From: a virus
Lineage: Duplodnaviria > Heunggongvirae > Uroviricota > Caudoviricetes
IMG/VR virus record: IMGVR_UViG_2681813273_000007
Coordinates: 1 to 9,930 of that record
Reading direction: 5' to 3' (one strand)
Length of the DNA: 9,930 bases
Shown: positions 1 to 9,930 of the stretch, piece by piece
Position numbering within the stretch: the first letter of the stretch is position 1
Layout of the letters: the number at the start of each line of letters is the position of its first letter
Notes under the pieces: model-generated
Seen by the model: only the letters and a program-made list of their open reading frames with translations
The model's database searches: none
What the model was told of the DNA's origin: nothing
Translations under genes and position numbers: made by a program

Positions 1-10
1 ATATCACTAT

Positions 11-39
11 TTACTTTTAAAAATAACAGTGCTATTAAT
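11..39 (+). promoter_or_regulatory. Candidate sigma70 promoter for the cro-like gene (-35 TTACTT 11-16, 17-bp spacer, -10 TATTAA 34-39)
   Basis: Hexamers read directly from the sequence upstream of the first ORF; the divergent repressor side is outside the window. No operator could be defined. Confidence 0.25.
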
Positions 40-72
40 TATGCATTGGTAACACATCACATAGGGCGGATT

Positions 73-336
73 ATGAATCTTGGAGAATATTTGCATCATT
101 TTCATATAACCCAGAGTTCATTTGCTGAGATTGTTGGCGCATCCCAAGGGATGGTCAGCCACGTTATAACGGGGCGTGCAAAACTTACAGGAGAAAAAAT
201 ATTACGTTGGTGTGAAGCAACGGGATGGGTGGTGACCCCACATGAGATTGACAGTAAAACCTACCCCAACCCAACTGACGGCTTGCCTGCTGAGTTTCAG
301 GCTAACACACAACCATCGGCGGGGGTTGATTCATGA
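73..336 (+). CDS. ydaS: Cro-like HTH DNA-binding protein, YdaS family (ATG at 73; the ORF track starts at an upstream TTG at 46)
   Basis: Helix-turn-helix signature SSFAEIVGASQGMVSHVITGRAKLTGEKILRW; small size; stop overlaps the start of the next gene (ATGA at 333-336), as in ydaS-ydaT pairs of Rac-like prophages. Family assignment from memory. Confidence 0.6.
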   Translation: MNLGEYLHHFHITQSSFAEIVGASQGMVSHVITGRAKLTGEKILRWCEATGWVVTPHEIDSKTYPNPTDGLPAEFQANTQPSAGVDS

Positions 337-758
337 AAATCAAGCATGAACACATCCGCATGGCGATGAAAGCCTGGGCGCATCCGGACGGTGAAAAAGT
401 TCCGGCAGCTGAAATAACCAGGGTTTATTTCGAACTGGGAATGACGTTTCCGGTTCTGCATAACGACAGCAAGCACAACACGCTTTATCTCAACACCCAA
501 AAGATTTTCCGTTGGCTGGATAAAGACACCCCTGACGCTGTTGAAAAAATTCAGGCGTTGTTACCTGCGATCGAAAGGGCAATGCCACCTCCGCTGGTGG
601 CTCGAATGCGCAGCCACAGTTCAGCTTATTTTCGGGAACTGGTGGAGACGCATGAACGACTGGTGAGAGACGCTGATGATTTTGTCGCAGTGGCAATCGC
701 CGGTTTCAATCAGATGAACCGTGGTGGCCCGGCAGGAAATGCTGTGGCAGTACATTGA
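333..758 (+). CDS. ydaT: YdaT-like protein (CII-like regulator of Rac-type prophages)
   Basis: 141-aa ORF starting MKIKHEH, translationally coupled to the upstream cro-like gene; position and size match the YdaS/YdaT pair. Family assignment from memory of the YdaT N-terminus. Confidence 0.55.
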   Translation: MKIKHEHIRMAMKAWAHPDGEKVPAAEITRVYFELGMTFPVLHNDSKHNTLYLNTQKIFRWLDKDTPDAVEKIQALLPAIERAMPPPLVARMRSHSSAYFRELVETHERLVRDADDFVAVAIAGFNQMNRGGPAGNAVAVH

Positions 759-829
759 CTGACAATAGCCATATCGAATCGCTCCCGGCAACTCGTGAGT
801 AAAAAGATTCGGTATCAGAAGAGGTGAGT

Positions 830-1894
830 ATGGCTAACGCCTGGCTCAGATTATGGCATGACATGCCAAATGACCCTAAGTGGCGAACAATTGCCAGGGT
901 GTCAGGGCAGCCAATTGCAACAGTGATGGCAGTGTATATCCACCTCCTGGTGAGCGCGTCACGAAATGTCACGCGAGGTCACATTGATGTCACGACAGAA
1001 GATTTGGCAAGTGCGCTCGACGTGACAGAAGAGGTAATTGATTCAATTTTGCAGACGATGCAGGGGCGGGTACTTGATGGTGATTTAATCACTGGATGGG
1101 AAAAACGCCAGGTGCTTAAAGAGGACAACGGCAATATTTCGCAAACCGCAAAATCTCCTGCAGAGCGCAAGAGGGCGCAGCGAGAGAGGGAAAGAAAGCG
1201 GGAACAAAATGGCGATTGTCACGGCGCGTCACGAAATGTCACGCACATGTCACGACGAGTCACGACAGATACAGATAAAGATACAGATAAAGAAGATCAA
1301 AACACTATGGTCCATGGCGTAAAAAACGCCACGAACCAGGCAGGGGATGTTCAGACCGTCAATCCTGGTCAGCCAGCAGGCTCGACACCGGAAGCCGATT
1401 CAGCGTATGCGCTGAAAGCCGATTCGGGCGCTGTGCAGCAGGTGATGACCGCAAGGCCGGAGCAATCACTCCAACTGCAGCAGCCTGAAGCCGATTCCGC
1501 CATTCAGCGGGAAGCCGATCGGGTAGCCCCGGAAAACACCGGGCAGCCTGTGGGACGAGTGGATTATCCGGATGTGTTCGAACAGGTCTGGCGGGAATAC
1601 CCGTTGCGTGCCGGGGCAAACCCGAAGAAATCCGCATTCAGTGCCTGGAAGGCCAGATTGCGCGAGGGGGTGCCACCAGAGACCATGCTGGATGGTGTGA
1701 GGCGTTACGCGAGATACCTGGCGGCGACCGGGAAAGCGGGAACGGAATTTGTTCAGCGAGCGACGACGTTTTTTGGGCCGGACCGGAATTTTGAAAACCC
1801 CTGGTTGCTCCCGGTAAGCGGCACGAACAACCAGCGTTGTGTGAATCATATTTCTGAACCGGATACCGAAATTCCGCCGGGATTCAGGGGGTGA
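830..1894 (+). CDS. Phage replisome organizer (lambda O analogue) with DnaT-like C-terminal domain; ATG 830 preferred, GTG 824 also possible
   Basis: RBS GAGGTG at 821-826; C-terminus ...VNHISEPDTEIPPGFRG resembles the C-terminus of E. coli DnaT as I recall it; gene sits immediately upstream of a DnaC-like gene; central region is low-complexity and repeat-encoded. Confidence 0.7.
   Translation: MANAWLRLWHDMPNDPKWRTIARVSGQPIATVMAVYIHLLVSASRNVTRGHIDVTTEDLASALDVTEEVIDSILQTMQGRVLDGDLITGWEKRQVLKEDNGNISQTAKSPAERKRAQRERERKREQNGDCHGASRNVTHMSRRVTTDTDKDTDKEDQNTMVHGVKNATNQAGDVQTVNPGQPAGSTPEADSAYALKADSGAVQQVMTARPEQSLQLQQPEADSAIQREADRVAPENTGQPVGRVDYPDVFEQVWREYPLRAGANPKKSAFSAWKARLREGVPPETMLDGVRRYARYLAATGKAGTEFVQRATTFFGPDRNFENPWLLPVSGTNNQRCVNHISEPDTEIPPGFRG
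954..1292 (+). repeat. Iteron-like repeats inside the organizer gene: GTCACG at 958, 968, 978 (GTCACA), 989 and again at 1218, 1228, 1238, 1249, 1259; a 21-bp direct repeat at 954-974 and 1224-1244; tandem ATACAGATAAAG x2 at 1269-1292
   Basis: Counted directly; spacing within each cluster is 10, 10, 11 (and 10) bp, about one helical turn; an inverted copy CGTGAC lies at 1020-1025; AT-rich tract follows the second cluster. Confidence 0.55.
1391..1534 (+). repeat. Four degenerate 24-bp repeats beginning GAAGCCGATTC (1391, 1415, 1487, 1511) encoding EADS/KADS/EADS/EADR peptide repeats
   Basis: Counted directly in the linker region of the organizer gene. Confidence 0.5.
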
Positions 1895-1900
1895 TGTGGC

Positions 1901-2647
1901 ATGAAAAACATTGCGGCAGCCGGGGTTCTTGAACGTATTCACAGACTTGCACCACAGGGGGCGGTTCCACCGTACCGGACGGTGGAGGAGTGGCGGGAAT
2001 GGCAACTTGCTGAAGGACGAAAACGCAGCGAGGAGATTAACCGCCAGAATCGCCAGTTGCGGGTGGAAAAAATCCTGAATCGTTCGGGCATCCAGCCTCT
2101 GCACAGCAAATGCTCGTTTGCGAATTATCAGGTGCAGAACGACGGGCAAAAATACGCGCTGAGCCAGGCCAAATCCATAGCTGACGAACTGATGACCGGG
2201 TGCACGAATTTTGTGTTCAGCGGTAAAACCGGCACCGGGAAAAATCACCTTGCAGCGGCGATGGGTAACCGGCTGATGGCGAAGGGGCGCAGCGTGATTA
2301 TCGTCACCGAGTCTGATGTCATGAGCGTGTTGCATGACAGCTACGACAACGGCAAATCCGGTGAAAAATTTTTACAGGAGCTTTGCGGGGTTGATTTGCT
2401 GGTCCTGGATGAAATAGGCATTCAGCGGGAGACGAAAAACGAGCAGGTGGTATTGCACCAGATAATTGATCGCCGGACAGCATCACTGTGCAGTGTCGGG
2501 ATGTTAACAAACCTGAATCATGCCGCAATGAGCACGCTTCTTGGTGAGAGGATTATGGACCGCATGACCATGAACGGTTGTCGGTGGGTGACGTTTAACT
2601 GGGATAGCTGGCGTTCAAATGTCAGCTTTCCGGGAGTTGTGAAGTAA
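1901..2647 (+). CDS. DnaC-like replicative helicase loader (phage P analogue, AAA+ ATPase)
   Basis: Walker A FSGKTGTGKNHLAAA and Walker B LLVLDEIG; overall strong resemblance to host DnaC as recalled; start 7 nt after the stop of the DnaT-domain gene. Confidence 0.85.
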   Translation: MKNIAAAGVLERIHRLAPQGAVPPYRTVEEWREWQLAEGRKRSEEINRQNRQLRVEKILNRSGIQPLHSKCSFANYQVQNDGQKYALSQAKSIADELMTGCTNFVFSGKTGTGKNHLAAAMGNRLMAKGRSVIIVTESDVMSVLHDSYDNGKSGEKFLQELCGVDLLVLDEIGIQRETKNEQVVLHQIIDRRTASLCSVGMLTNLNHAAMSTLLGERIMDRMTMNGCRWVTFNWDSWRSNVSFPGVVK

Positions 2648-2668
2648 TTTTTGTTGGAGGATGTTTTA

Positions 2669-3394
2669 ATGGAAACTGTATTTGACGCACTGAAAGCACT
2701 GAAAAGAGCCTCTTCACATGTGGTGGCGTCCCGCCTTGGAATCAGCCGTGAAGATGCGGTCAACGAACTGTGGAAACTGAAGCGCCGTGGTGAAGCGGAT
2801 AACAAGGGTTCGATGTGGTGGCTGATTCAGGCTGGTGAAAGTGAACCAGTGTCACCGGTACCGAAAGTGACAGCGCAAATGCTGACTGAGGCGATTGAAC
2901 AACATGGCCCACAAACGGCGGATGAGCTGGCACTGATGTTCGGGATTACCTCCCGCCGGGCGAATTCATCGCTGGCCATGGCAATCAGCAAAGGGCGTCT
3001 GATTCGCGTGAATCAGGGCGGTAAATTTCGGTACTGCATACCGGGCGCTGATTTACCGGCAGAGCCGAAAGCCGCATCCATAGCGGAAACGGATGGTAAA
3101 GTCTTTCCTCAGCCAGCAGGTGTTGCGTTACCGGTACAGGAAGCTGCAACACAGGAAGAAATTAAAACAGAAACTGTGGCGGACATTGTGCAGTCGTTGC
3201 CATCGTTCACCGAAACGCAAGCGGATGACCTGGTTTTACCATCGCTGCATATGGCAAACCGCGAACTGCGTCGGGCGAAAAGTCATGTCCAGAAGTGGGA
3301 GCGTGTCTGCGCCGCGTTGCGGGAGCTGAACAAGCACCGGGATATTGTTCGACAGATTGTCGATTCCTCCGGTCGTATTGTGTCGGAAAAGTGA
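2669..3394 (+). CDS. Hypothetical prophage protein, 241 aa, two winged-helix-like segments and a charged C-terminal region (ORF track starts at TTG 2651; ATG 2669 has GGAGG 8 nt upstream)
   Basis: Long ORF with a good RBS; no family recognised. It has no counterpart between the DnaC-like and Ren-like genes of the second module. Confidence 0.5.
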
Positions 3395-3409
3395 TTGCCG
3401 GGGGCGCTT

Positions 3410-3649
3410 ATGGCAAAAGTATTTACACAGGAAGAGCGGGAAAAAATTAAGGGGCAGGTTGTTGAACTCGTACGCCAGAGTGGGCGCGAGACGTTACGAC
3501 AACTGGAAGCTAAAACCGGGGCGACAAGATATTTAATAAGCGTTCTCGCCAGAGAGCTGGTTGCCAGTGGGGATGTATACAACTCTGGCTACGGGTTATT
3601 CCCGTCTGAACAGGCTCGTAAGGACTGGCAAAACGCCCGCAAAAAACTC
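3410..3649 (+). pseudogene. ren: 5' part of a Ren-like gene (module I), interrupted after codon 80; the reading frame runs on into IS600 sequence to a stop at 3697
   Basis: Encodes MAKVFTQEEREK...QNARKKL, collinear with the intact 140-aa paralogue at 6359-6781; homology ends exactly where the IS end begins. Ren assignment from memory of the lambda Ren C-terminus (see 6359-6781). Confidence 0.55.
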
Positions 3650-3693
3650 ATGAGGTGTACTGGCAATAGCGGACACTACCATTTGTTCTTTTT

Positions 3694-4512
3694 TTAAGCA
3701 GCCATCTGATGATATTTTTCCCTGAAGGCTGCCGGGGAGATATTCCCCAGACGAGAGTGACGACGCTGACGATTGTAGAAAATCTCAATGTATTCCCGTA
3801 TTACTGAGATGGCTTCATCCCGGTTATTAAAACGATAGTGGCTCAGGCTCTCATTTTTCAGCGTTCCCCAGAAGCTTTCCATCGGAGCGTTGTCGTAACA
3901 GTTACCTTTACGCGACATTGATGTTTTCAGACCAGACTGCTCCTGTATGACCCGGTAATCGTATGCGCAGTACTGTGAACCTCGATCAGAGTGGTGGATT
4001 AGCCCGGCAGGTGGGCGCTGGCTCCTGAGCGCCATAAACAGGGCTTTACCTGTCAGCTCTTTTGTCATGCGCTCTCCCATGGCGTAGCCGACAATTTCGC
4101 ACGTATAAACATCTTTGATGCCAGCGAGGTACAACCATCCCTCCTGTGTGGCAACATACGTCAGGTCCGCCACCCAGACCTGATTTGGTGCTGTAGGAGC
4201 GAACGTCTGGTTCAGCAGATTTGGCGCAACTGGCAGATTGTGGTTCGAGTTCGTAGTCGCTCTGAACTTGCGTTTCTGCTTACAGCGTAGCCTTAGCTCC
4301 TTACGAAGACGTGCCAGTCGGTCACGACCAACGATGATGCCATTCTCTGCCAGCTCCGTCTGGAGCCGCCGGGTTCCATATGTTTCGCGAGTGCGGATAT
4401 GTGCCACCTTAATCTCCAGTTTTAGCCGCTCATCACTTTGTTTTCTGTCTGAGGGTTCATGCTGTACCCAGTTGTAATAACCGCTCCTGGATACACCAAA
4501 TACCTGACACAT
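3694..4512 (-). CDS. IS3-family transposase OrfB (DDE catalytic domain); the true OrfAB product is made by -1 frameshifting near 4592-4599, so the OrfB frame extends upstream of 4512
   Basis: 272-aa ORF from the first in-frame Met; integrase-like core; overlaps orfA in the -1 frame. Confidence 0.9.
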   Translation of the reverse strand: MCQVFGVSRSGYYNWVQHEPSDRKQSDERLKLEIKVAHIRTRETYGTRRLQTELAENGIIVGRDRLARLRKELRLRCKQKRKFRATTNSNHNLPVAPNLLNQTFAPTAPNQVWVADLTYVATQEGWLYLAGIKDVYTCEIVGYAMGERMTKELTGKALFMALRSQRPPAGLIHHSDRGSQYCAYDYRVIQEQSGLKTSMSRKGNCYDNAPMESFWGTLKNESLSHYRFNNRDEAISVIREYIEIFYNRQRRHSRLGNISPAAFREKYHQMAA

Positions 4513-4547
4513 CGCTTCAATGGGAAATTGTTGTCGCCATTGTTCGA

Positions 4548-4850
4548 TTAACGCGTATTTTTCAGCGACTCCTGTGCAAAATACGCTGTTGCTTTTTTTA
4601 ATATATCTCGCTCAAGGCGAGCTTCATTTAACGCCTTACGCAGTTGCAGAATTTCAGATTCCAGTTCAGCCACCGTGCGGGAACCAGGAGTACCGAGCCC
4701 TTTTCTGGCGGCGGTAACCCATTGTCCTAAAGTGCCTTCAGGAAGAGATAATCGGGAAGCGCCTTCACTGATCGAAAGTTGATTTTCAAGAACCGTTCTG
4801 ACAGCTTCGGCTTTGAACTCTTTAGAGTAACGTTGGGTTTTTCTGCTCAT
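4548..4850 (-). CDS. IS3-family transposase OrfA (HTH, leucine-zipper part)
   Basis: 100-aa ORF MSRKTQRYSKEFKAEAV... with an AAGGAG RBS; the A7G slippery motif (reverse complement of 4592-4599) lies near its 3' end. Confidence 0.9.
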   Translation of the reverse strand: MSRKTQRYSKEFKAEAVRTVLENQLSISEGASRLSLPEGTLGQWVTAARKGLGTPGSRTVAELESEILQLRKALNEARLERDILKKATAYFAQESLKNTR

Positions 4851-4914
4851 TATTAGCTCCTTCTGATGCCATTCTATTTCAGGAAGGAGTGTCCGTTAAA
4901 CTCAGGCTACCTCA

Positions 4915-5591
4915 GGTTATTCGCTTCTGGGCATGGGCGGATCAACAAATGATAGACGGTAATGCAGATTGTAACGCTCGCGGCGTTACAAAAAGTGCAA
5001 TAGATCGCATCACTTTTATGTCTGGTTTTGCTGATGCGTTAATTCAGGTTGGATGGCTGGTCGAAAATGACGGAGGGCTTTCTCTACCTAACTTTGAACG
5101 TCATAACGGAAAAAGCTCTAAAAAAAACGGGCGGTTACAAACGAGCGAGTAACAAAAATACGCGAACTGAAACGAAAAGGTAACGCTGCCAGCGTTACAC
5201 AAACGGATCAAAAAGCGTTACCAGAGGAAGAGGAAGAGGAAGATCTAAATACTGATCTCCCCCTCGCCAAAAACGAGCGTCTAAAAAATTCGAGCCGGAG
5301 GCTATTGAGCTGCCCGATTGGTTGCCGGAAACACTCTGGCATGAGTGGGTCCGGTTCAGACAGGCATTGCGAAAACCGATTCGAACGGAGCAGGGCGCTA
5401 ACGGGGCGATACGGGAACTGGAAAAATTCCGTCAGCAGGGTTTTACACCTGAGCAGGTGATTCGACACAGCATCGCCAATGAATACCAGGGCCTGTTCGC
5501 GCCGAAAGGTGTTCGGCCTGAGACGTTGCTCCGACAGGTTAACACCGTCTCGTTGCCGGACAGTGCGATCCCGCCAGGCTTCAGGGGGTAA
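4915..5591 (+). pseudogene. 5'-truncated, frameshifted replisome-organizer/DnaT-domain gene (module II)
   Basis: Begins abruptly at the IS end; three reading frames must be joined (switches inside A8 at 5120-5127 and A6 at 5283-5288) to obtain one protein ending ...VNTVSLPDSAIPPGFRG, the same C-terminal motif as the module I gene. Confidence 0.7.
4959..5221 (+). repeat. GTAACGC-type repeats in the module II organizer gene: 19-bp palindromes GTAACGC-N5-GCGTTAC at 4971-4989 and 5180-5198, half-sites at 4959-4965 (GTAATGC) and 5215-5221
   Basis: Counted directly; they occupy the same relative part of the gene as the GTCACG clusters of module I. Confidence 0.45.
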
Positions 5592-5597
5592 CGGACC

Positions 5598-6344
5598 ATG
5601 AAAAATATTGCGACAGGCGGCGTTCTGGAACGCATCCGCCGACTGACCCCGCCACATGTAACCGCCCCATTCAGAACGGTAGCGGAGTGGCGCGAGTGGC
5701 AACTTGCTGAAGGCCAGAAACGTAGCGAGGAGATCAACCGCCTGAATCGCCAGTTGCGGGTGGAAAAAATTCTGAATCGCTCAGGCATCCAGCCGTTGCA
5801 CCGTAAATGCTCGTTTGCGAATTACCAGGTGCAGAACGACGGCCAGCGATACGCGTTAAGCCAGGCGAAATCCATCGCCGATGAACTGATGACCGGGTGT
5901 ACAAATTTTGCGTTCAGCGGAAAACCTGGTACCGGGAAGAATCACTTAGCGGCAGCTATCGGGAATCGCCTGCTGAAAGACGGTCAGACAGTGATTGTGG
6001 TTACCGTGGCTGATGTTATGAGCGCCCTGCACGCCAGCTATGACGACGGGCAGTCAGGCGAAAAATTTTTGCGGGAGCTGTGCGAAGTGGATCTGCTGGT
6101 TCTTGATGAAATTGGCATTCAGCGCGAGACGAAAAACGAGCAGGTGGTGCTGCACCAGATTGTTGATCGCCGGACAGCGTCGATGCGCAGCGTGGGGATG
6201 CTGACAAACCTGAACTATGAGGTGATGAAAACATTGCTCGGCGAGCGGGTGATGGATCGCATGGTCATGAACGGCGGGCGCTGGGTGAATTTTAACTGGG
6301 AGAGCTGGCGTCCGAATGTTAGCCATTCGAGGGTTGTTAAGTAG
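5598..6344 (+). CDS. DnaC-like replicative helicase loader, second copy (about 85 percent identical in protein to 1901-2647)
   Basis: Walker A FSGKPGTGKNHLAAA, Walker B LLVLDEIG; collinear with the first copy. Confidence 0.85.
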   Translation: MKNIATGGVLERIRRLTPPHVTAPFRTVAEWREWQLAEGQKRSEEINRLNRQLRVEKILNRSGIQPLHRKCSFANYQVQNDGQRYALSQAKSIADELMTGCTNFAFSGKPGTGKNHLAAAIGNRLLKDGQTVIVVTVADVMSALHASYDDGQSGEKFLRELCEVDLLVLDEIGIQRETKNEQVVLHQIVDRRTASMRSVGMLTNLNYEVMKTLLGERVMDRMVMNGGRWVNFNWESWRPNVSHSRVVK

Positions 6345-6358
6345 TTTCAGGAGGATTT

Positions 6359-6781
6359 ATGGCGAAACCTTTTACTCCCGAACAGCGGGAAGAACTGAAG
6401 ACGCGAATTGTGGAACTCGTGCATCAGGACGGTCGGGTCACGATTCGGCAGTTGTCAGATGAAACAGGTATCAGTCGTGCGTCTGTCGGTCGCTTATGCA
6501 TAGAACTGGTCGCAAGTGGTGATGTATATAATTCTGGCTACGGCTTATTCCCGTCTGAACAGGCTCGCAAGGACTGGCAAAGCGCCCGCAAAAAACTCTC
6601 GAGAGTAAAGGTGAGGAAACCGGTTGTTGTTGATCCGGACCTTATCTGGTCATTACCTGACGGAGAAATACGCCGCTACGACAGGCGCCTGAATATAATC
6701 TGTCGCGAGTGCCGGAAGAGCGAAGCTATGCAGCGTGTACTGGCTTTCTATCAGGGTAATTTTCAGGAGGCGATACTGTGA
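6359..6781 (+). CDS. ren: Ren-like protein (module II), intact, 140 aa
   Basis: Strong RBS AGGAGG at 6348-6353; N-terminal winged-HTH-like segment and a C-terminus ...ICRECRKSEAMQRVLAFYQG that matches lambda Ren (...KECRQSAAMKRVLAVYG) as I recall it; position after the P-like gene as in lambda. Confidence 0.5.
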   Translation: MAKPFTPEQREELKTRIVELVHQDGRVTIRQLSDETGISRASVGRLCIELVASGDVYNSGYGLFPSEQARKDWQSARKKLSRVKVRKPVVVDPDLIWSLPDGEIRRYDRRLNIICRECRKSEAMQRVLAFYQGNFQEAIL

Positions 6782-6838
6782 ATGAAATTAGCTATCAGGC
6801 TTCAATTACCGCTGGCATTCGCATCAAAGGAGAGGAGC

Positions 6839-6952
6839 ATGGAAATAAAACGATATTGCTTAACTCATCTTCTGGTTTTATTTCCGGTAAAAGAGGATGA
6901 CCCTCGTAATCAGGTTAATTTTCTTTATGAGCCATCGGAAAGACCATATTAG
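6839..6952 (+). pseudogene. Truncated 5' fragment (37 codons) of the small Cys/coiled-coil gene, module II allele
   Basis: MEIKRYCLTHLLVLFPVKEDDPRNQVNFLYEPSERPY then a stop at the junction; same RBS and start context as the intact gene at 7215. Confidence 0.45.
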
Positions 6953-7157
6953 GCAAAACGCCCGCAAAAAACTCTCGAGGGCAAAGCTGAAGAAACCATC
7001 TGTGGTTGATCCGGACCTTATCTGGTCATTACCGGACGGAGAAATACGCCGCTACGACAGACATCAGAACATAATCTGTCGCGAGTGCCGGAAGAGTGAA
7101 GTTATGCAGCGTGTACCGGCTTTCTATCAGGGTGATTTTCAGGAGGCGGTACTGTGA
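6952..7157 (+). pseudogene. ren: 3' part of the split module I Ren-like gene
   Basis: Encodes QNARKKLSRAKLKKPSVVDPDLIWSLPDGEIRRYDRHQNIICRECRKSEVMQRVPAFYQGDFQEAVL; its first 23 bp (6952-6974) are identical to 3627-3649, the last bases of the 5' part before IS600. Confidence 0.6.
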
Positions 7158-7214
7158 GTGAAATTAGCTATCAGGCTTCAATTACCGCTGGCATTCGCAT
7201 CAAAGGAGAGGAGC

Positions 7215-7571
7215 ATGGAAATAAAACCAGAAGATGAGTTAAGCAATATTGTTTTATTTCCGGTAAAAGAGGATAACCCTCGTAATCAGGTTAATTTTCT
7301 TTATGAGCCATCGGAAAGACCATATTGCCATCACGCTTCTGTCCGGGTTGACGAAAAAGAGCGTCAGGTCCGCTGTAAAATTTGCGGTGCAGTTGTGGAG
7401 CCATTTGACTGGATGCTCTCTGTGGCGAAAAGAGAAACCAGACTGGCAGATGATGTAAGGCTCTTGCGCCAGGAGGAGCGGGAAAGGCGAAAAAATATAG
7501 AAAAGCTAATCCAGATTGAGCGTAATGCGAAAGCGCGGATACGCAGGGTGACAAAATATAGCCCCGAATAA
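7215..7571 (+). CDS. Hypothetical small protein, 118 aa, Cys/His cluster (C-H-H ... C-x2-C) followed by a charged coiled-coil-like C-terminus
   Basis: Strong RBS AGGAG at 7203-7210 with ATG at 7215; the ORF track begins at an upstream in-frame codon (7158), which I do not prefer. Confidence 0.5.
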   Translation: MEIKPEDELSNIVLFPVKEDNPRNQVNFLYEPSERPYCHHASVRVDEKERQVRCKICGAVVEPFDWMLSVAKRETRLADDVRLLRQEERERRKNIEKLIQIERNAKARIRRVTKYSPE

Positions 7572-7785
7572 TCAAGGTTATTTCTGGAAGTCAAGTCGTG
7601 AGTGATGAGGACTAACAAATACGGTGAACTCGATAAAGAGATTCAGGACGAACTGGAGGCCAGGAATGATTGACAAATCACCAAGTGAGTTCAGCTACAA
7701 AGATTTATTGTCATAACGGGTTATGAGATCGACTTGGTGCGTGATATTCTTCGGGCCAGTTTGCTATGCGCCACCATGAGATGTT

Positions 7786-8223
7786 ATGGCCCGCATGTTT
7801 GATACATTAGGATTTTACATTATGAATGTGCAACATTTTGATTTTTTTACAGATAATGAGTTTTCTAATCTGGAAAGATATCAAACTTGTAAAGCCATGG
7901 CCAAAGGTTATGCGGGCAATTACAAAACCGGGCAGTCAAGGTTGATGCATGCCCGCTCATACTGCTTCAGCATCGTAGCTGCATATTGGGATACACGGGT
8001 TGACGAAAAAGAGCGTCAGGTCCGCTGTAAAATCTGCGGTGCGGTTGTGGAGCCGTTTGACTGGATGCTCTCTGTGGCAAAAAGAGAAACCAGACTGGCA
8101 GATGATGTAAGGCTATTGCGCCAGGAGGAACAGGAAAGGCGGAGAAATATAGAAAAGCTGATACAGATTGAGCGTAACGCGAAAGCGCGGATACGCAGGG
8201 CGACAAAATCCAGAACTGAATAA
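7786..8223 (+). CDS. Hypothetical paralogue of the 118-aa protein: different N-terminal half, near-identical C-terminal 75 aa (alternative start ATG 7822 with AGGA 8 nt upstream)
   Basis: DNA 7996-8208 is about 95 percent identical to 7343-7555; upstream parts are unrelated. Confidence 0.45.
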   Translation: MARMFDTLGFYIMNVQHFDFFTDNEFSNLERYQTCKAMAKGYAGNYKTGQSRLMHARSYCFSIVAAYWDTRVDEKERQVRCKICGAVVEPFDWMLSVAKRETRLADDVRLLRQEEQERRRNIEKLIQIERNAKARIRRATKSRTE

Positions 8224-8370
8224 TTAAATTTAGCACTGTTAAAAATTTAATCCTTAACCGGAGGGATTTCTGCACCCTCAAATCATCAGGAGACCACCCG
8301 AAAGGGCGGGGAGCAGTCACACATCTGTTTCCGATAGCCCCGTTCTAATGCTACACTCTTTGATATTTTT

Positions 8371-9057
8371 ATGACCCCAATAAACATATTTATGACAGTT
8401 GCTGATTTCAAACGGCCCAAATTGGAGCTCCCAAACGGGGCAAACAAACTACTACTGCACTCTTGCTGTGCTCCATGTTCCGGTGAGGTGATGGAGGCGC
8501 TTCAGGCCTCGGGAATCGACTACACCATCTTTTTCTACAACCCGAACATTCATCCTCAGAAAGAGTATTTAATTCGTAAGGATGAGAATATTCGCTTTGC
8601 TGAACAACACGGCGTGCCGTTTATTGATGCTGATTACGACACAGACAACTGGTTTGAACGAGCCAAAGGAATGGAATGGGAGCCCGAACGAGGGATCCGT
8701 TGCACCATGTGTTTTGACATGCGTTTTGAGCGGACAGCGCTGTACGCCGCTGAAAATGGTTTCAGTGTGATCAGCAGTTCACTGGGCATTTCACGCTGGA
8801 AAAATATGCAGCAGGTTAACGACTGTGGGCGGCGAGCCGTCGCGCATTATCCGGGCATGGTGTACTGGGATTATAACTGGCGCAAGCAGGGCGGCTCGTC
8901 CCGTATGATTGAAATCAGCAAGCGCGAAAAATTCTATCAGCAGGAATATTGTGGCTGTGTGTATTCTCTGCGCGATACCAATCTACACCGCAAATCTCAG
9001 GGACGCCCTCTTATCAAAATTGGTCAACTCCACTACGGTAAAGAAGAGAAGGAGTGA
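8371..9057 (+). CDS. queH: QueH-like protein (DUF208 family, epoxyqueuosine reductase-like); start may be the internal ATG at 8392
   Basis: N-terminal [11 protein letters not shown] motif plus later Cys pairs (CTMC, CGC), which I recall as the DUF208/QueH signature; 228 aa is the expected size. Not verified by search. Confidence 0.55.
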
Positions 9058-9116
9058 TTTTATGGGGCACCTTTCTGATTGATTTCATATTGGCGAGGTA
9101 AGTAGAATGACTGCGG

Positions 9117-9284
9117 GTGCTTGAGGCTATCTGCTTCAGGCATGAACACCAAAAGGCAGATAGAGAAAAGCCCCAGTTAACATTACGCGTCCGGCAAGAC
9201 GCTTAACATTAATCTGAGGCCAATTTCATGCTTTGCACATGTAGGTTAGCCTCTTACATGCCGAAAGGCAAGGAGAAGCAGGCT
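9117..9284 (+). promoter_or_regulatory. Leader of the hok-family mRNA (predicted 5' folding elements)
   Basis: Sequence GCTTGAGGCTATCTGC...GCAGATAG forms an 8-bp stem (9127-9134 with 9156-9163) and resembles hok mRNA leaders as recalled; precise 5' end not determinable. Confidence 0.4.
9180..9260 (-). ncRNA. sok: Predicted sok-like antisense RNA overlapping the mok start region (position approximate)
   Basis: Inferred only from the conserved organisation of hok/sok loci; I could not define a convincing promoter or terminator on the minus strand. Confidence 0.25.
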
Positions 9285-9440
9285 ATGAAGCAGCAAAAGG
9301 CGATGTTAATCGCCCTGATCGTCATCTGTTTAACCGTCATAGTGACGGCACTGGTAACGAGGAAAGACCTCTGTGAGGTACGAATCCGAACCGGCCAGAC
9401 GGAGGTCGCTGTCTTCGTAGACTACGAATCCAGGAAGTAA
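9228..9440 (+). CDS. mok: Mok-like reading frame (in-frame N-terminal extension of hok)
   Basis: 70-aa ORF MLCTCRLASYMPKGKEKQA followed in frame by the Hok peptide, as in chromosomal mok/hok pairs. Confidence 0.55.
   Translation: MLCTCRLASYMPKGKEKQAMKQQKAMLIALIVICLTVIVTALVTRKDLCEVRIRTGQTEVAVFVDYESRK
9285..9440 (+). CDS. hok: Hok/Gef-family type I toxin, 51 aa, single transmembrane helix
   Basis: MKQQKAMLIALIVICLTVIVTALVTRKDLCEVRIRTGQTEVAVFVDYESRK is very close to HokC/HokD as recalled; AAGGAG RBS 10 nt upstream. Confidence 0.85.
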   Translation: MKQQKAMLIALIVICLTVIVTALVTRKDLCEVRIRTGQTEVAVFVDYESRK

Positions 9441-9517
9441 GAGTGACCGGGCGGGGAGCTGATCCCATCCCCGCCCACCTCTGATGTGTCAGGCATCCTC
9501 AACGCACCCGCACTTAA

Positions 9518-9560
9518 CCCGCCCATCGCTGTGATCTCTCAGCGTTTCGGCGGGTTTTTT
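9518..9560 (+). terminator. Candidate intrinsic terminator / hok mRNA 3' element (CCCGCC ... GGCGGG stem followed by T6)
   Basis: Stem arms at 9518-9523 and 9549-9554, T run 9555-9560; the loop is long (25 nt), so this is a weak call. A tighter hairpin GGGCGGGGA/TCCCCGCCC lies at 9450-9478. Confidence 0.4.
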
Positions 9561-9699
9561 GTTGTTTATTTCCGGTGAATTTGATTCGCGCACCTTCGCA
9601 GATAGAATCGACTCACTTAAGTAGCGCGCAGGGAGAAGAGGGATGGACCCCGAACAGGGGAGAGCTATTTATCTGGAAGGATTCTGAAGATGAAAATCG

Positions 9700-9930
9700 A
9701 AGAATTGCGTGAAATTTTTAGTGAAAATGGCCTCTATGCTGTGCGCGTTGAGAATGGAGCGATTGTCAGCCATTGCCGCATTAGATGTTTGCAATCTCAA
9801 CAAAGGAAGAGCGGTGCTGTGTTATTTTATTTTTGTAATGGACTTCTGACGGACGGTTTTATTTTGCGTGAGGACGAATTTGTCACATCATTACGGGTTT
9901 TGAAAGAGATAGGTTTTAAGGCTGGTTTTC
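9700..9930 (+). CDS. 5' part of an unrecognised gene running off the window end (MKIEELREIFSENGLYAVRVENGAIVSHCRIRCLQ...)
   Basis: Open frame of 77 codons from an ATG with AAGGA upstream and no stop before the window edge; absent from the ORF track because it is unterminated. Confidence 0.35.

Follow-up and report, generated by a model that had tools for sequence, protein, structure and literature searches.

Gene Content of the Locus

The window, that is, the whole stretch of DNA analysed (9,930 nt), covers contig CXEN01000180.1 (9,930 bp) in the draft assembly GCA_001258415.1 from end to end. It carries prophage genes, a complete IS600-family element and, at two places, a small gene of the PHROG 1621 family (Table 1). 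The product of this small gene shows a sub-threshold zinc-ribbon match and has a coiled-coil C-terminus. In 42 loci, stop codons block the reading frame upstream, which places the start of the gene at the ATG at 7215. A short inverted repeat lies at the very beginning of the gene, and the spacer between its arms has opposite orientations in the two copies.

Table 1. Features of the window, with positions counted from its first nucleotide.
Feature	Position	Strand	Remarks
Scaffold piece 1, left part of the Y locus	1..3649	+	100.000% (3647/3647) to the Y locus of CP044151.1 (L146 2114-5760)
Genes of piece 1	1..3649	+	YdaS/YdaT-like, replisome organiser, DnaC-like, DUF1627, 5´ part of DUF977; gene order as in complete genomes
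Scaffold join	3650		N in public record, A in window; homology breakpoint
Scaffold piece 2, IS600 and left part of the X locus	3651..6950	+	Collinear with L124 5281-8592
IS600-family element, complete	3651-4915		99.4% identity to an annotated copy
X genes of piece 2	4916..6950	+	O-like remnant, DnaC-like gene, DUF977, first 112 nt of the small gene
X-type small gene, 5´ 112 nt, flipped spacer	6839..6950	+	PHROG 1621 family; the piece ends there
Left arm of X module, GGAAATAAAAC	6841..6851		Begins at the G of the ATG start codon
Spacer of X module, B orientation, 23 nt	6852..6874		Encodes RYCLTHLL instead of PEDELSNI
Right arm of X module, GTTTTATTTCC	6875..6885		Repeat finder
Scaffold join	6951		N in public record, A in window; makes the apparent TAG at 6950-6952
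Scaffold piece 3, Y locus continued	6952..7994	+	100% to L141 5738-6780, 99.9% to L146
Genes of piece 3	6952..7994	+	3´ part of DUF977, intact small gene, ~210 nt of the 5´ part of an HsdM-family methyltransferase gene; annotated in FDAARGOS_943
Y-type small gene, intact, 118 aa, A orientation	7215..7571	+	PHROG 1621
Y module	7217..7261		Arms 7217-7227 and 7251-7261, spacer 7228-7250 (A); repeat finder
Chimeric 145-aa ORF	7786-8223	+	First ~70 codons of the HsdM-family gene (Y) fused to the 3´ part of the X-type small gene
Scaffold join	7995		N in public record, A in window; makes the chimeric ORF 7786-8223
Scaffold piece 4, right part of the X locus	7996..9930	+	99.95% to L124 8609-10544
Genes of piece 4	7996..9930	+	Small gene from ~nt 130 to its stop at 8223, QueH, HokD, Rem

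Assembly of the Window from Two Distant Loci

The public record of the contig has an N at positions 3650, 6951 and 7995, and the window shows an A at each of them. In BLAST comparisons with complete genomes, the blocks of homology start and stop exactly at these three positions. The resulting four pieces interleave two prophage loci, termed X and Y, that are distant from each other in complete S. sonnei-type genomes; in CP044151.1, the X locus lies at ~4.5 Mb and the Y locus at ~0.6 Mb, ~3.9 Mb apart by coordinate. Pieces 1 and 3 form one continuous Y locus, with a 23-nt overlap within an uninterrupted DUF977 gene. The paralogous X locus, which comprises IS600, the O-like remnant, the DnaC-like gene, DUF977, the small gene, QueH and HokD, supplied piece 2 from its left part and piece 4 from its right part. 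The contig is a scaffold in which these interleaved, distant loci are joined by single-N placeholders.

A single-N placeholder at joins is the behaviour of SSPACE and GapFiller. Both programs have been described as greedy and as tending to make false joins; in one pipeline, they receive reads that did not map as proper pairs (PMC5320598). The structure of the scaffold is consistent with greedy read-pair scaffolding followed by gap filling in repeats (PMC5320598), and a pipeline of the SSPACE/GapFiller type was probably used for GCA_001258415.1. The presence of a complete IS600-family element (1,265 bp) inside a short-read contig is likewise a sign of scaffolding and gap filling rather than of plain assembly.

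The original prediction described a truncated and an intact copy of the small gene; that these stand in a tandem duplication was not borne out, as the two copies belong to different chromosomal loci brought together by single-N scaffold joins. The 376-bp offset of the supposed duplication is an artefact, since the joins at 3650, 6951 and 7995 are N placeholders. The first copy is not a truncated gene, because piece 2 simply ends at 6950, and the apparent TAG stop at 6950–6952 is unreal, as the public record reads T-N-G there, with N at 6951. In all ten of the complete-genome loci compared, DUF977, the small gene and the next gene follow one another in order, and the duplication is found in none. 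The product of the 145-aa ORF that spans the join at 7995 has no other record in the protein collection, according to exact-product look-up. Exact look-ups were also empty for the supposed truncated products of 56 and 37 aa; as the public gene call reads through the N, these are no real products. Any ORF or repeat that spans one of the three joins has to be regarded as unreliable.

Two further readings of the contig were rejected. An IS600-mediated rearrangement was considered as the source of the junctions and discarded, given the 23-nt overlap of pieces 1 and 3 in the uninterrupted DUF977 gene. The right end of the window was considered as an attachment site in tmRNA; a search with ARAGORN gave neither a tRNA nor a tmRNA gene, and the region consists of QueH/HokD late-prophage DNA.

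The X-type small gene of this isolate either resumes after a gap of ~17 nt or is interrupted by IS600 as in CP044151.1. In the latter genome (L130 8609-9873), IS600 has entered the X-type small gene, duplicating the target GTA, directly before the position at which piece 4 starts (7996). This isolate may have the same insertion, in which case the flipped gene would be a pseudogene.

Two other observations concern the loci themselves. In complete genomes, the HsdM-family methyltransferase gene is followed by a gene for a BsuBI/PstI-type restriction endonuclease. In the O-like remnant, an AGAGGA array (5223–5243, 3.5 copies) varies by 0, +1, +2, +3 or more units among near-identical complete genomes and behaves as a small VNTR.

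Single-N joins that are shown as bases can therefore mimic a duplicated gene with an inverted segment, and such architectures need junction checks against the public record and complete genomes before they are interpreted.

The Inverted-Repeat Module and Its Flipped Spacer

In the letters of the window, the module of the X copy (6841–6885) reads GGAAATAAAA / CGATATTGCTTAACTCATCTTCTGG / TTTTATTTCC and that of the Y copy (7217–7261) reads GGAAATAAAA / CCAGAAGATGAGTTAAGCAATATTG / TTTTATTTCC. The 25-mers at 6851–6875 and 7227–7251 show a single difference when compared as reverse complements, against 19/25 when compared directly, so that the predicted presence of a 25-bp segment in both orientations, with one mismatch, was confirmed. 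The window contains two occurrences of the arm–N25–arm pattern including the outer flanks, with 0.00 expected from shuffled sequences. The flanking inverted repeats, put at 10 bp in the original prediction, do exist, but their perfect arms comprise 11 nt (GGAAATAAAAC / GTTTTATTTCC, 100% complementary) and enclose a spacer of 23 nt in both copies. The repeat finder returned no other perfect spaced inverted repeat of such size in the window. As single-stranded DNA, the module is predicted to fold into a hairpin of ~-6 kcal/mol (z ~-4).

Orientation A is defined as that of the intact copy, which encodes the peptide K-PEDELSNI-V, and orientation B as the flipped one, which encodes K-RYCLTHLL-V. 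The recoding had been placed at codons 5–13; codons 5–12 do change (PEDELSNI to RYCLTHLL), but codon 13 (V) lies in the arm and stays the same. In the four spacer alleles, both orientations remain open in frame.

The lone mismatch between the two 25-mers is a common synonymous polymorphism, ATC/ATT, that distinguishes the X and Y alleles. At the same locus, complete genomes (L124–L127, L130) have an allele that matches the flipped 23-nt spacer exactly once it is reverse-complemented, and the stretch 6782–6950 is the S. sonnei-type X locus of complete genomes with the spacer reverse-complemented and otherwise identical. Once the spacer is un-flipped, 4916–6950 matches CP146292.2 at 2035/2035 nt, and other complete genomes differ from it only in the AGAGGA copy number and a few SNPs. 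The arms, the length and the flanks are unaltered by the flip, both here and in the second flipped record described below.

In some Shigella sonnei records, the end of an IS1 element lies within the 23-nt spacer (...GGCAGCATCACC|AAGATGAG...; L063 ~10730-10760; P0022, P0025, P0027), so the hairpin loop has also been hit by a transposon.

Ancestral Orientation of the Small Gene

The spacer varies at synonymous sites only, and the A peptide is invariant over varying DNA in the 122 IMG/VR copies. Most of the distant phage homologues align only from ~residue 34, and two reach the N-terminus. The homologues from Klebsiella (TETEIELGKVVAFP) and Hafnia (SETDDLANVVQLV) phages have an A-like acidic N-terminus, and the repeat is absent there. 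Since A is universal in the complete genomes, viral contigs and phages surveyed below and an A-like motif is kept in distant homologues that lack the repeat, A is the ancestral, functional orientation, under purifying selection. The repeat is no conserved element; it is specific to the lineage and came about as a by-product of the coding sequence.

The idea that the repeat forms an mRNA hairpin for the control of translation found no support; the RNA fold of the start region is indistinct (z = -1.7 and -0.5), and distant homologues have not kept the repeat. A 42%-identical homologue in the Klebsiella phage ST15-VIM1phi2.1 (L148) contains a perfect 9-bp repeat of its own (CTGGGAAAG / CTTTCCCAG), with a 7-nt spacer, at codons ~9–17. 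This repeat overlaps the homologous "...VVAFP" codons, and its right arm covers the F-P codons, as the right arm of the E. coli repeat does, a shared placement that may be a coincidence.

Distribution of the Two Orientations

Complete genomes were searched with a 75-nt probe with asymmetric outer flanks. Of the 5,426 complete E. coli genomes, 1,631 gave a full-length match in orientation A and 0 in orientation B; matches to the B probe were confined to the self-complementary 45-mer, which is A read on the opposite strand. Among the ~2,000 module copies contained in these 5,426 genomes, none is flipped. In IMG/VR viral contigs, 122 of 122 copies are in orientation A and vary at three synonymous sites only. 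A B pattern allowing for these three sites had no match, either among viral contigs or among 241 million metagenome records, nor did a relaxed pattern for the B-specific junction in metagenomes. Phage genomes yielded 11 copies in A and 0 in B, and the five loci found in GTDB representative genomes with a spacer-only pattern are all in A. A spacer-free arm pattern had no match in the GTDB representatives owing to flank variants. Finally, a tally anchored downstream of the module, made over the loci collected, gave 144 A, 2 B and 1 interrupted by IS1. The E. coli/Shigella module, with an identical spacer, is also carried by a 3-kb scaffold assigned to the MAG of a Collinsella sp. (JAIHTM010000290.1, L139), which is probably a mis-binned or contaminating contig.

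At the protein level, a search with the B-state ORF returned A-state sequences only, including many independently truncated Shigella forms. Such a homology search is blind to intact B proteins inside a 90%-identity cluster, a gap that was closed by exact look-ups. These were chosen because an intact B protein is ~92% identical to the A form and could hide in such a cluster. B-state versions of the commonest alleles were derived from their own DNA and looked up by exact sequence (n = 25). One of these 25 hypothetical proteins (P0035) is on record, from one contig, and the A form of the same allele is found on at least 1,000 contigs.

In total, the B state is on public record twice, both times as a singleton on a short contig of a draft assembly. 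The flip is rare (under 1 in 1,000), confined to tips and without spread; it is most probably not a switch. The idea of a small inversion polymorphism that segregates was thus not upheld, B being absent from the complete E. coli genomes, viral contigs, metagenomes and phages searched. The alternative outcome, in which homologues show a single orientation and the window holds a one-off event, describes the surveys well but was not right in full, as the same event has been recorded once more, independently.

A Second, Independent Flip

The second flipped copy lies on JAYEUE010000320.1 (L140), a 4,026-bp contig without any N from an unrelated E. coli draft (GCA_037030315.1). The gene is intact there (118 aa), with an Ea22-like gene upstream and DUF7167 downstream, a prophage context unlike that of the window, and the module is more than 1.2 kb from each contig end. 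Its 11-nt arms are again 100% complementary and 23 nt apart, and the spacer between them is precisely reverse-complemented with respect to another allele (GAG). After un-flipping, the contig agrees with the complete genome of E. coli THO-003 at 100.000% over 3,900 nt. On this comparison, the flip is on record twice, independently, each time as a tip singleton otherwise equal to a complete A-state genome.

Origin of the Flipped Spacer

The explanation favoured here, with a confidence that lies only somewhat above even, is that the flipped segment is a single, enzyme-independent inversion of the spacer that arose in the DNA of the isolate through a double template switch during replication. A perfect 11-bp repeat brackets the 23-nt spacer over codons 2–16 of the small prophage gene. 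The nascent strand, while copying the first arm, would pair with the complementary arm on the other template strand, copy the spacer off that strand and switch back at the second arm. The spacer would thereby be turned into its exact reverse complement with the arms, the length and the frame kept, and residues 5–12 would change from PEDELSNI to RYCLTHLL. A template-switch product was among the possibilities raised in the original prediction and is supported by the results: the spacer is precisely reverse-complemented between perfect arms of unchanged sequence, the length is the same and nothing else differs, the very pattern expected of a switch between inverted repeats. It has been described that intermolecular template switching inverts spacers between perfect arms of >9 bp in coding DNA, with recurrent and reversible cases (PMC8604942). 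We infer that the strand switch took place in vivo rather than in vitro. Several points count against an in vivo origin: the flipped spacer lies 76–100 nt from the single-N join at 6951, inside a multi-copy repeat, and both B records come from draft assemblies, with none in complete genomes. Moreover, the length of the spacer, 23 nt against 2–5 bp in yeast coding sequences (PMC8604942), counts against the template-switch explanation.

The principal rival, which we consider a possible though clearly less probable account, is a technical artefact, at least for the copy in the window, whereby fold-back chimeras would have formed at the inverted repeat and been taken up by greedy, short-overlap extension or gap filling near the join, so that no DNA molecule of the isolate would have had the flipped spacer. 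The window, with its single-N joins at 3650, 6951 and 7995, does interleave two distant loci wrongly, the flipped spacer is within 76–100 nt of the N at 6951, and sequence beside a single-N join in a multi-copy repeat is where greedy gap filling is least reliable. A k-mer test indicated that A-state DNA together with single-switch fold-back chimeras supplies every k-mer of the B path if the k-mer or overlap length is at most 45; at k >=47, the B path needs molecules flipped across both arms. Sonication libraries yield chimeric reads that have the inverted complement of the reference between inverted repeats (PMC10908179), SSPACE and GapFiller are described as greedy and as tending to make false joins (PMC5320598), and the flipped state occurs in no complete genome. 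A pure de Bruijn error from genuine reads alone was tried as well and rejected, as the flipped path lacks k-mers that it needs at every k from 21 to 69.

However, genuine unflipped reads should far outnumber chimeras in a majority-rule extension. The flipped spacer has the allele of the X locus, and the next 75 nt are the correct X haplotype. Closeness to the join is weak evidence, because the module lies near contig ends in most short-read Shigella assemblies anyway, as seen from their partial proteins. If the artefact were common, flipped fragments should appear among the thousands of S. sonnei drafts, and none is on record there. Furthermore, the second record, mid-contig and without any N, is left unexplained by such an artefact.

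Two readings give the flip a more regular occurrence. The 45-nt module could be a natural, enzyme-independent flip-flop hotspot whose flipped form is present at a low level across many E. coli/Shigella populations and recodes the N-terminus of a conserved prophage protein, in which case occasional isolates would be caught with the flipped state as their majority sequence; this is regarded as very improbable. About as improbable is a programmed or fast reversible recoding micro-inverton, a module that turns back and forth in populations, so that the protein has two N-terminal variants. That both orientations are in frame for all four spacer alleles, that at least two independent flips are on record and that a 57-bp recoding intragenic inverton has been confirmed in Bacteroides (10.1101/2023.03.11.532203) would fit such a system. 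On the other side, B stays below 1 in 1,000 and is met as tip singletons only, and the A peptide is invariant despite synonymous DNA variation and is retained by distant homologues. Beyond the E. coli/Shigella clade, the repeat is not conserved, and the window encodes no recombinase except the IS600 transposase. In addition, a 23-nt spacer is too short for the synapsis of two duplex recombinase sites by serine or tyrosine invertases.

Lastly, a genuine tandem duplication whose truncated pseudogene copy was then inverted beside the intact one, as suggested by the 376-bp offset repeat and the TAG stop after codon 37 in the window as given, is refuted, since the repeat boundary and the stop coincide with 6951, an N in the public record, pieces 1+3 (with their 23-nt overlap) and 2+4 belong to loci ~3.9 Mb apart in CP044151.1, the chimeric 145-aa product is in no other record of the collection and ten of ten complete-genome loci lack the duplication.

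Comparison with Known Systems

The double template switch favoured above can be set beside several described phenomena. The PDSM library chimeras (PMC10908179) likewise arise at natural inverted repeats and have an inter-arm sequence that is the inverted complement of the reference. They are single-switch products seen at low frequency in soft-clipped reads, whereas the consensus here is flipped across both arms, and they cannot account for the second flip, in the middle of its contig.

Recoding intragenic invertons (10.1101/2023.03.11.532203) resemble the module in that the inversion lies wholly within a gene and recodes it in frame, in one case over 57 bp. Both of their orientations coexist in clonal cultures, and the inversion is ascribed to invertases. 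In contrast, the module has a B frequency of <0.1%, no invertase in the window and a repeat that is not conserved, and its two states are known here from assemblies.

Quasipalindrome-associated template-switch mutagenesis in E. coli was reportedly described by Ripley in 1982 and later by the Sinden and Lovett laboratories, with hotspots said to reach ~1e-8 to 1e-7 per generation. It shares with the flip a replication-dependent strand switching at short hairpin-forming repeats, and the hotspot rates are of the same order as a rough estimate from two events among thousands of sequenced copies. The classical events make imperfect arms perfect through one switch and return, whereas the arms are already perfect here and the loop alone is inverted.

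Minute hairpin-loop inversions are known from plastid genomes (for example PMC6824564) and were reportedly described by Kelchner and Wendel in 1996. These inversions have a stem of ~10–20 bp and a loop of tens of nucleotides, and they flip exactly and repeatedly. They are alike in being exact and in recurring, which makes them a homoplasious character; they differ in being mostly non-coding and often at high frequency or fixed, while the prophage flip is coding and evidently selected against. The latter appears to have been purged, which is consistent with purifying selection on the N-terminus of the protein. If the hotspot reading were true, the module would be a bacterial coding-sequence counterpart of the plastid hairpin-loop inversions.

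A close likeness is with the inversions described by Abraham and Hazkani-Covo in 2021 (PMC8604942), which also involve perfect arms of >9 bp, an exact inversion of the spacer with unchanged arms, an in-frame multi-nucleotide recoding and independent recurrence at the same repeat. The yeast cases comprise 2–5 bp and one or two residues, whereas 23 nt and eight residues are recoded here; furthermore, the gene is that of a bacterial prophage, and the derived state is found as singletons only, never as a clade. The event in the window, on a draft contig that was wrongly scaffolded, is a further example of this already known class of mutation. No new system emerges from it; it provides a clean bacterial example, recorded twice independently, of the inversion of a 23-nt coding spacer. 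Short perfect intragenic inverted repeats can flip their loops exactly, and scans based on the comparison of paralogues will see the result as a striking cluster of mutations.
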